Assembly: GCF_044324875.1 (NCBI RefSeq) | Contig: NZ_CP172185.1 | Source: Escherichia coli | GTDB lineage: Bacteria > Pseudomonadota > Gammaproteobacteria > Enterobacterales > Enterobacteriaceae | DNA length: 64,000 nucleotides | Strand: one strand, 5' to 3' | Shown: piece after piece, positions 60,122 to 60,775 of the stretch | Position numbering within the stretch: position 1 is the first letter of the stretch | How the letters are laid out: every line of letters starts with the position of its first letter | Position numbers and translations under genes: made by a program | Notes under the pieces: model-generated | Databases searched by the model: none | Told to the model about the DNA's origin: nothing | Seen by the model: the letters and a program-made list of their open reading frames with translations, nothing else

Positions 60122-60775
60122 TCACTTTTCTTTTGTGTCAGTGGGTACTGCATTGTTTATTAGCCACGGCAATTGTTGATTATCCTGTATTTTTCGGATG
60201 TAGTTATCAATAATATCTTTTGTTTCATCAATATTATTATAAAAAGATTCAAGTGTGCATATAAAATCATCATTTAATGTAGGTAGCAGGATTATGTTTT
60301 TTACTGTGAACCGGATATGACGATTACTCAGTGTTTTTAAATAAAGTTTCTTTCCAATAACAGGATTTACATTGAAAATATTGTAACAGATTTCCACTGT
60401 GTTTTCTGAAGGTGCGTATAATACGTATACCGGATATTTTTTATGAAGTTTTATCAAGCAACTTATAAAATCTAAGTAATTTGTTTGTTTTGCTTTTTCT
60501 CGCATCTTATTTACGTGCTGCGAAAAGAAATATGCTTTTGTAAATATAAAAAGAAAAATAAACGCAGTGTTTAACAGAAATGTGATGACAATTGTTGTAA
60601 ATAACCATTTGCCTGAACCTGTATTAAAAATATGGGATGAAAGATACCCACCTGTCAGCAACAAAAATATAAATAATAATGACTGCATTTTTTCCTGGTT
60701 GTTTATTGATGATTTCAGACACAGAAATATAACAACACATGAAAAGGTCCAGAAAAATATAACAGCAAAATCCAT
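60122..60775 (-). CDS. Membrane protein of unknown function (N-terminal TM bundle plus soluble C-terminal domain)
   Basis: AAGGTGA RBS before ATG 60775; 3-4 hydrophobic helices in first ~100 aa; AT-rich, atypical composition. Confidence 0.5.
   Translation of the reverse strand: MDFAVIFFWTFSCVVIFLCLKSSINNQEKMQSLLFIFLLLTGGYLSSHIFNTGSGKWLFTTIVITFLLNTAFIFLFIFTKAYFFSQHVNKMREKAKQTNYLDFISCLIKLHKKYPVYVLYAPSENTVEICYNIFNVNPVIGKKLYLKTLSNRHIRFTVKNIILLPTLNDDFICTLESFYNNIDETKDIIDNYIRKIQDNQQLPWLINNAVPTDTKEK

Follow-up and report, generated by a model that had tools for sequence, protein, structure and literature searches.

A predicted inner-membrane protein carried by an integrative and conjugative element of Escherichia coli belongs to an undescribed family of Enterobacterales

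The window analysed here is a stretch of 64,000 nucleotides of Escherichia coli DNA (assembly GCF_044324875.1, contig NZ_CP172185.1), whose gene content identifies it as part of an ICE (integrative and conjugative element) of the ICEEc2/pKLC102/SPI-7 type. The subject of this study is a minus-strand gene near its end that encodes 217 amino acids. The product is predicted, from hydropathy, structural modelling and family alignment, to be a small inner-membrane protein with three transmembrane (TM) helices and a cytoplasmic alpha/beta domain of about 120 residues. The family to which it belongs was absent from every library searched and, by that measure, is undescribed and restricted to Enterobacterales. 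The gene is of an ordinary kind: its product is one of the uncharacterised orphan membrane proteins that mobile elements encode. A role in genetic conflict, as a membrane barrier, is proposed tentatively.

The longest open frame at the locus extends over 60122..60802 on the minus strand (226 codons). At the composition of the gene, the chance of 226 stop-free codons was 6e-9, and the longest open frame obtained in 2000 shuffles was 133 codons. The pairwise ratio of nonsynonymous to synonymous substitution rates (dN/dS, or omega; Nei-Gojobori method) was 0.52 for the closest allele pair and 0.2 to 0.4 for more distant pairs, and it was lower in the C-terminal domain than in the TM part. The improbability of the frame, the dN/dS values of 0.2 to 0.5 and the occurrence of about 25 diverged clusters of one architecture establish the locus, at the level of sequence, as a real, functional and self-contained gene. 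Its GC content was 29.5% (27 to 30% in 400-nt windows) compared with 36 to 59% in the flanking DNA, which bears out the AT-rich composition, unlike that of the neighbours, described in an earlier reading of this DNA made from the letters alone (the sequence-only reading). The third codon positions were not enriched in GC.

The start codon was assigned to the ATG at 60775, which is preceded by an AGGTG Shine-Dalgarno (SD) sequence at a spacing of 5 nt and coincides with M-D-x-S-L-x-F-F-Y, the N-terminus conserved in all family members. Both features confirm the 217-residue protein that the sequence-only reading had placed at 60122-60775. The in-frame extension of nine codons from the ATG at 60802 is probably not translated. 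The RefSeq product, called by PGAP, has 188 residues (WP_224476500, WP_223367345) and starts at the third Met, the ATG at 60688. Because family conservation and the SD site favour the 217-residue start, the RefSeq start is regarded as mis-called; the annotated product would be without TM1. Upstream of the gene, a promoter scan gave two overlapping sigma-70-like candidates, TACACA-18-TATATT with a TG element and TTGATA-18-TATCGT, and the number of candidates in the region was not above shuffle expectation. Imperfect 24-nt direct repeats (60113-60136 and 60901-60924, 75% identical) bracket the gene almost exactly. They are probably a chance match but could mark an old insertion of a gene cassette.

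Three TM helices, at residues of about 3-23, 27-47 and 55-85, were found by hydropathy and AlphaFold. The sequence-only reading had described an orphan membrane protein with a TM bundle of three to four hydrophobic helices and a soluble C-terminal domain; the general layout and the count of three were upheld, and a fourth helix was not. The structure prediction named in that reading as a check was run with AlphaFold on a 22-sequence alignment and gave a model with a predicted local distance difference test (pLDDT) score of 88 and a predicted template modelling (pTM) score of 0.75, the pLDDT being about 90 over the C-terminal domain; the model from the single sequence was poor (pLDDT 50). Its helices lie at residues 3-25, 27-47 and 55-97, and the C-terminal domain was modelled as a helix (100-112), five strands and two further helices (175-179 and 183-197). 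The mean number of Lys plus Arg residues in 15 full-length members was 3.2 for loop 1 and only 0.5 for loop 2, and it rose to 4.2 over the 20 residues past TM3. This distribution across the family indicates that the predicted topology is N-out/C-in, with the C-terminal domain in the cytoplasm. The bundle would accordingly consist of a short periplasmic N-terminus, a basic cytoplasmic loop 1 and an uncharged periplasmic loop 2 that contains an invariant Trp57.

The best-conserved region of the family is the C-terminal domain, with the motif WYVLYxPSxNxxEIGxN...GKKFYxKTLxGR...FY...Y..IK...PW. Conserved positions were found in the periplasm-facing N-terminus, at Trp57 and, within the C-terminal domain, at E128, N132, L149, R152, F178, Y192 and P203-W204; no obvious catalytic constellation was seen among the conserved columns. 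The last 127 residues contain 12% Ile, 11% Asn and 10% Lys, as expected from the Lys/Asn/Ile-rich C-terminal part noted before.

When 1.84 billion cluster representatives were scanned exhaustively with HMMER, 25 clusters at 50% identity were obtained, 20 of them with E<=1e-10. Full-length members have about 200 to 230 residues and share one layout, and two further profile searches added members but no new architectures and no domain fusions. The named members come from Enterobacterales only (E. coli, Salmonella enterica including subsp. salamae, Serratia, Atlantibacter, Intestinirhabdus and Entomohabitans), and all of them are labelled hypothetical. Neither the full open reading frame (ORF) nor the 22 family members nor their C-terminal domains alone had a significant match in Pfam, NCBIfam, PHROGs or PADLOC, in agreement with the lack of a recognisable motif reported in the sequence-only reading. 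Homology to a housekeeping transporter, which that reading had given as the outcome that would speak against it, was not found in the library searches. The only matches, all sub-threshold, were to the TM composition of Bax1-I and EMP70. No match to the gene was obtained by tblastn of phage genomes, and no paper was found in a literature search by the RefSeq protein accessions.

Three apparent identities were rejected. The match to Bax inhibitor-1 (PF01027) reached 20.4 bits against a cut-off of 34.1, covered TM residues only and was obtained for 2 of 22 members; moreover, the Bax inhibitor-1 architecture has seven TM helices compared with three in the studied protein. A match to polyubiquitin among PDB sequences (E-value 7.6e-9) was an artefact: nine matches of 4.5 bits, all to a single beta-hairpin motif, had been added together. 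Each of these matches had an i-Evalue of about 320, and the predicted order of strands and helices in the C-terminal domain differs from that of a beta-grasp. Finally, a 213-residue ORF beside the Intestinirhabdus homologue is not a paralogue and overlaps a 180-bp tandem repeat.

The region 59400-61200 is 100% identical to the chromosome of E. coli TUM1886, whose RefSeq annotation lists the ICE genes ParA, SPI-7-type DnaB, topoisomerase III, Ssb, TraD and many TIGR037xx ICE proteins, together with a conjugative ATPase, iha and TraG_N; the transfer module is complete and of the MPF_G type. The TraG_N gene ends near 53.9 kb and is followed by a lipoprotein-like ORF, a type-B ribosomal protein L31 gene (L31B), a block with a restriction-modification (R-M) system and ccdBA, two small phage-like ORFs and the studied gene. 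The location between a defence cassette and a recombinase module given in the sequence-only reading is therefore correct (Table 1). The window contains four STAXI elements and one EFASI element. The integrase-domain gene has one STAXI-EFASI pair directly upstream, exactly the STAXI-EFASI-integrase arrangement described in Rfam (PMC12370729). This placement and that of the tandem STAXI pair between topoisomerase III and ssb agree with associations published for the two elements, which may act as single-stranded DNA during transfer.

The gene had a constant slot (L31B, gene, STAXI-EFASI-integrase) even in ICE variants with a flank identity of only 84%. An allele of 43 to 45% identity occupies the matching slot of an ICE remnant in Shiga toxin-producing E. 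coli (STEC), in the order L31B, hok, gene, STAXI-like sequence and integrase-domain gene. The same allele type is present in the tellurite/urease (ter/ure) island of enterohaemorrhagic E. coli (EHEC), in 589 of the 5426 complete E. coli genomes (about 11%), and this diverged allele is kept in the island in essentially all EHEC O157, O145, O111 and O103 genomes; the identity of the gene was at least 99% across 571 genomes carrying the island. The homologue in SpLE1/O-island 43/48 of EHEC O157 is WP_000397129. In all three settings (ICE, STEC remnant and EHEC island), L31B is conserved as a neighbour of the family member. As far as synteny can show, ICEs of the ICEEc2/pKLC102/SPI-7 type, and the decayed elements that descend from them, have long carried the gene as an accessory.

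A third E. coli type is located about 1 kb from a P4-type integrase in the leuU island at tRNA-Leu. The more distant members form single-gene islets. Those of S. salamae and Intestinirhabdus lie downstream of tRNA-Ser and that of Entomohabitans beside tRNA-Asn; the Atlantibacter islet follows the rplS operon, and the Serratia islets are flanked by unrelated genes of the chromosome. Next to the Intestinirhabdus islet are type I-F CRISPR-Cas genes and a tandem array of 180-bp units. Every copy was solitary and 10 to 25 GC points below its surroundings, and no partner gene was conserved across the contexts examined.

The gene is the fastest-evolving one in its neighbourhood, by about fivefold, and is still under purifying selection. 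Between the window and the STEC ICE variant, its dN was 0.45 (45% amino acid identity), compared with 0.08 to 0.09 (83 to 87% identity) for two flanking genes of the recombinase module. In the close pair, the omega of 0.52 compares with 0.05 to 0.29 for the neighbours. Such rapid divergence is a pattern typical of conflict genes.

A conflict role of the protein is suggested, with reserve, as the likeliest reading, on four grounds: the gene travels alone on mobile elements, it diverges rapidly, decayed islands have kept it, and the protein is analogous to inner-membrane exclusion proteins with cytoplasmic determinants. It would act alone as a membrane-anchored barrier, an exclusion or immunity factor from which both the element and the host benefit. 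The TM bundle would put the protein in the inner membrane, the place of entry of foreign DNA or toxins; the conserved cytoplasmic domain would bind to some part of either the invader or the machinery of entry, and this binding would block productive entry or abort the process. Among the forms that such a barrier could take, phage-directed superinfection exclusion or abortive infection receives the largest share, although it is improbable when taken singly; conjugative entry exclusion is less probable still, and immunity to a membrane-acting toxin is very unlikely. No result of the analysis refuted the abortive-infection or immunity role raised in the sequence-only reading, nor a role in exclusion.

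The Eex protein of SXT is an inner-membrane protein with a cytoplasmic specificity region (PMC5812530), and PAPI-1, an ICE of the same superfamily as the present one, shows exclusion with an index of about 298 that has been assigned to no gene (PMC5297154). Like TraS of F and Eex of SXT/R391, the studied protein is small, encoded by a conjugative element and predicted to lie in the inner membrane, and its predicted cytoplasmic C-terminal region could carry specificity. The likeness extends to the strong divergence of alleles between related elements, a putative promoter of the gene's own and the lack of a partner gene. Unlike TraS and Eex, the protein is larger and has a folded 120-residue domain, its gene is not beside a TraG-like gene, and homologues occur outside conjugative elements.

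P22 SieA, T4 Imm and lambda RexB are single-gene membrane proteins of superinfection exclusion or abortive infection. The studied gene resembles this type in being solitary, AT-rich, fast-evolving and located on a mobile element, with a membrane-anchored product, but it differs in having no PADLOC or PHROG homology, no phage carrier found and no consistent defence-island context. Among signalling defence systems, the cyclic-oligonucleotide-based antiphage signalling system (CBASS) has Cap15, a TM-anchored effector whose small beta domain binds a ligand. An N-terminal TM bundle followed by a compact, beta-rich cytoplasmic domain is common to both proteins, whereas no cyclase or other signal-generating partner was present in any context of the studied gene, and no sequence or fold match was obtained.

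Several results weigh against the barrier role. Those that concern entry exclusion are the distance of about 6 kb between the gene and TraG_N, on opposite strands and with cargo between them; the presence of relatives in chromosomal islets without conjugation genes; and the comparison of F TraS with the family profile, which reached an hhalign probability of 4.6% over 15 TM residues and amounts to no sequence similarity. No exclusion family of Pfam or NCBIfam matched the gene. By position, the 190-residue lipoprotein ORF that directly follows TraG_N is a better candidate for the exclusion factor of the ICE. With regard to defence, PADLOC-DB 2.0 returned no defence family at E<=0.1 for the 226-residue ORF, while the same database identified the neighbouring nuclease and methylase as REase_II and MTase_II, respectively. 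Foldseek found no structural neighbour with E below 0.1 in PDB or BFVD. Of about 12 distinct contexts, 3 had defence genes at a distance of up to about 10 kb (the R-M system of the window, hsdMS in STEC and the type I-F CRISPR-Cas locus of Intestinirhabdus), a sample too small for statistics. In addition, omega was below 1, and the fast evolution may reflect weak constraint.

Almost as likely as the conflict role is an accessory membrane protein of non-conflict physiology (envelope homeostasis, signalling or niche adaptation) that travels as ordinary cargo like iha and type-B L31. The gene is found among such cargo and not in a defence island, housekeeping genes flank the copies in Serratia marcescens and Atlantibacter, selection is purifying (omega 0.2 to 0.5) and no defence model matched. 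Less easily reconciled with ordinary cargo are the patchy distribution, the strongly foreign composition, the recurrent linkage to tRNA genes, integrases and ICEs, and a dN five times that of the neighbours; scans of the family members and C-terminal domains against the libraries also detected no transporter, enzyme or signalling domain. The remaining explanations become progressively less likely in the order in which they are given here. It is improbable that the gene hitch-hikes on islands as an orphan under weak constraint, silenced by H-NS and of little or no function at present. The maintenance of the full frame and architecture at a dS above 2 and about 25 to 45% identity argues against it, as do the persistence of conserved motifs in both the TM part and the C-terminal domain and the near-identity of the allele among the EHEC-island genomes. 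This explanation would account for the very low GC content, the fairly high omega of close alleles, the truncated RefSeq start, the truncated or fragmentary copies (P0003, P0041 and P0042) and the frameshifted pseudogene immediately downstream.

A two-gene module, in which the gene would be toxin or antitoxin, or effector or regulator, together with the gene immediately downstream, has only a slight chance of being correct. In strain AR_0089, a co-directional phrog_1853-like gene of 105 codons begins 95 bp past the stop codon with no predicted terminator between, and the EHEC allele has a membrane ORF of 113 codons 46 bp downstream. The putative partner varies, being a soluble phrog_1853 protein, a membrane ORF or, in chromosomal islets, nothing at all. 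In the window, it is disrupted while the gene is intact: a 1-bp deletion splits the 105-residue protein (intact in AR_0089, WP_001696703) into ORFs of 61 and 52 residues. An MscS-like mechanosensitive or other ion channel is very unlikely. One homologue bears the JGI label 'small-conductance mechanosensitive channel', and the MscS family shares the layout of three TM helices followed by a cytoplasmic beta-containing domain; against this, no member matched the MS_channel models, and hhalign with E. coli MscS gave a probability of 0.14%. At the end of the order stands a membrane effector that forms one defence-island module with the adjacent GmrSD-HNH nuclease, EcoRI-like methylase and ccdAB, which is already largely refuted by the co-occurrence data. 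In the window, the gene is about 1.2 kb from ccdA on the same strand, and in strain 2013C-3033 a diverged homologue has hsdM/hsdS and the cassette within about 15 kb, the cassette itself being about 14 kb away. A plus-strand ORF and the pseudogene lie between the gene and the cassette of the window, and the cassette also occurs without the gene beside it.

The defence inference drawn in the sequence-only reading from the adjacent R-M-like cassette and ccdAB did not hold. The cassette is a block of about 3.3 kb (55560-58880) that was found at differing positions in six E. coli genomes. Among the 35 complete E. coli genomes with this allele, it adjoins the gene in only 2, the other 33 being without the cassette; four further genomes have it elsewhere. 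The ICE of AR_0089, like that of most other carriers, matches with 99.8% identity as far as L31B and contains the gene, but not the R-M and ccdAB block. Because adjacency is limited to 2 of 35 genomes and the cassette occurs elsewhere, the cassette is shown by these comparisons to be a separate mobile insertion of which the gene is not a part. The block has the look of a mobile unit in which an R-M system and a toxin-antitoxin pair are physically joined. The case shows that adjacency to defence genes in a single genome is weak evidence.

Upstream of the methylase gene, the cassette contains a perfect heptanucleotide repeat. Compared with the window, the matched lengths differed by about -42 and +71 bp in CM2 and TUM1886, which suggests that the copy number is variable; phase-variable expression of the R-M operon is possible.

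Other observations concern the neighbourhoods of the gene and its relatives. In a related STEC element, TraT is located in the region that corresponds to the lipoprotein ORF. The 113-residue membrane ORF next to the EHEC-type homologue is missing from the gene table of the EDL933 island record. In Intestinirhabdus alba (L006, 6985-7755), a 180-bp unit that starts in the 3' end of tRNA-Ser(GGA) is present in 3.9 copies after the tRNA gene, and beyond the repeats come the family member and the type I-F CRISPR-Cas locus. The 180-bp units are possibly stacked att-site scars, and the 213-residue gene called across them is probably spurious.

Table 1. Coordinates of the studied gene, its parts and the surrounding features (positions in the window unless another record is named)
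Feature	Position	Strand	Basis or remark
Coding sequence, 217-residue protein	60122..60775	minus	Stop codon 60122-60124; ORF list, SD, family N-terminus
SD sequence AGGTG	60781..60785	minus	Sequence before start: GACAAAAGGTGATAAT then ATG
In-frame nine-codon upstream extension from ATG 60802 (probably not translated)	60776..60802	minus	No SD before 60802; no counterpart in family
N-terminal three-helix TM bundle (predicted), residues 1-85	60521..60775	minus	Hydropathy, AlphaFold, charge distribution, conserved columns
C-terminal alpha/beta domain, residues 96-217, predicted cytoplasmic	60125..60490	minus	Family alignments, AlphaFold, lower dN/dS
Two overlapping sigma-70-like promoter candidates	60817..60866	minus	Promoter scan; consensus matches only
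Downstream phrog_1853-like pseudogene	59710-60026	minus	1-bp deletion in A-run
STAXI	60945-61117	plus	Above Rfam gathering score; about 170 bp from start of studied gene
EFASI	61642-61764	plus	Above Rfam gathering score
STAXI	63740-63911	plus	Above Rfam gathering score
Tandem STAXI pair	26927-27049, 27050-27233	plus	Above Rfam gathering score; between topoisomerase III and ssb
Integrase-domain and zinc-finger genes	61883-63583	opposite to studied gene	Upstream of studied gene
190-residue ORF with lipoprotein signal (…TLSAC…)	54475-55047	plus	Directly after TraG_N; unmatched in Pfam and PHROGs
Type-B (zinc-independent) ribosomal protein L31 paralogue	55271-55534	plus	ICE/island cargo
GmrSD-HNH nuclease, EcoRI-like methylase and ccdBA	55641-58879		On the opposite side of studied gene from integrase module
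Perfect heptanucleotide repeat TGCTTGT x17	58034-58152		About 50 bp upstream of methylase start 57983 (minus)
113-residue ORF, predicted polytopic membrane protein	L003 9718-10059 (EDL933 island)	plus	46 bp downstream of EHEC-type homologue

It is rather unlikely that the gene founds a new family of autonomous inner-membrane exclusion or defence proteins of Enterobacterales, for example an ICE entry-exclusion determinant or a single-gene anti-phage system. If this were true, the repertoire of such proteins would gain a fold without a known structural relative, and the intact retention of the gene in decayed EHEC islands would be explained. It could also supply the exclusion gene that is missing for a large superfamily of ICEs. 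The family is a candidate for a new Pfam entry as a domain of unknown function (DUF).
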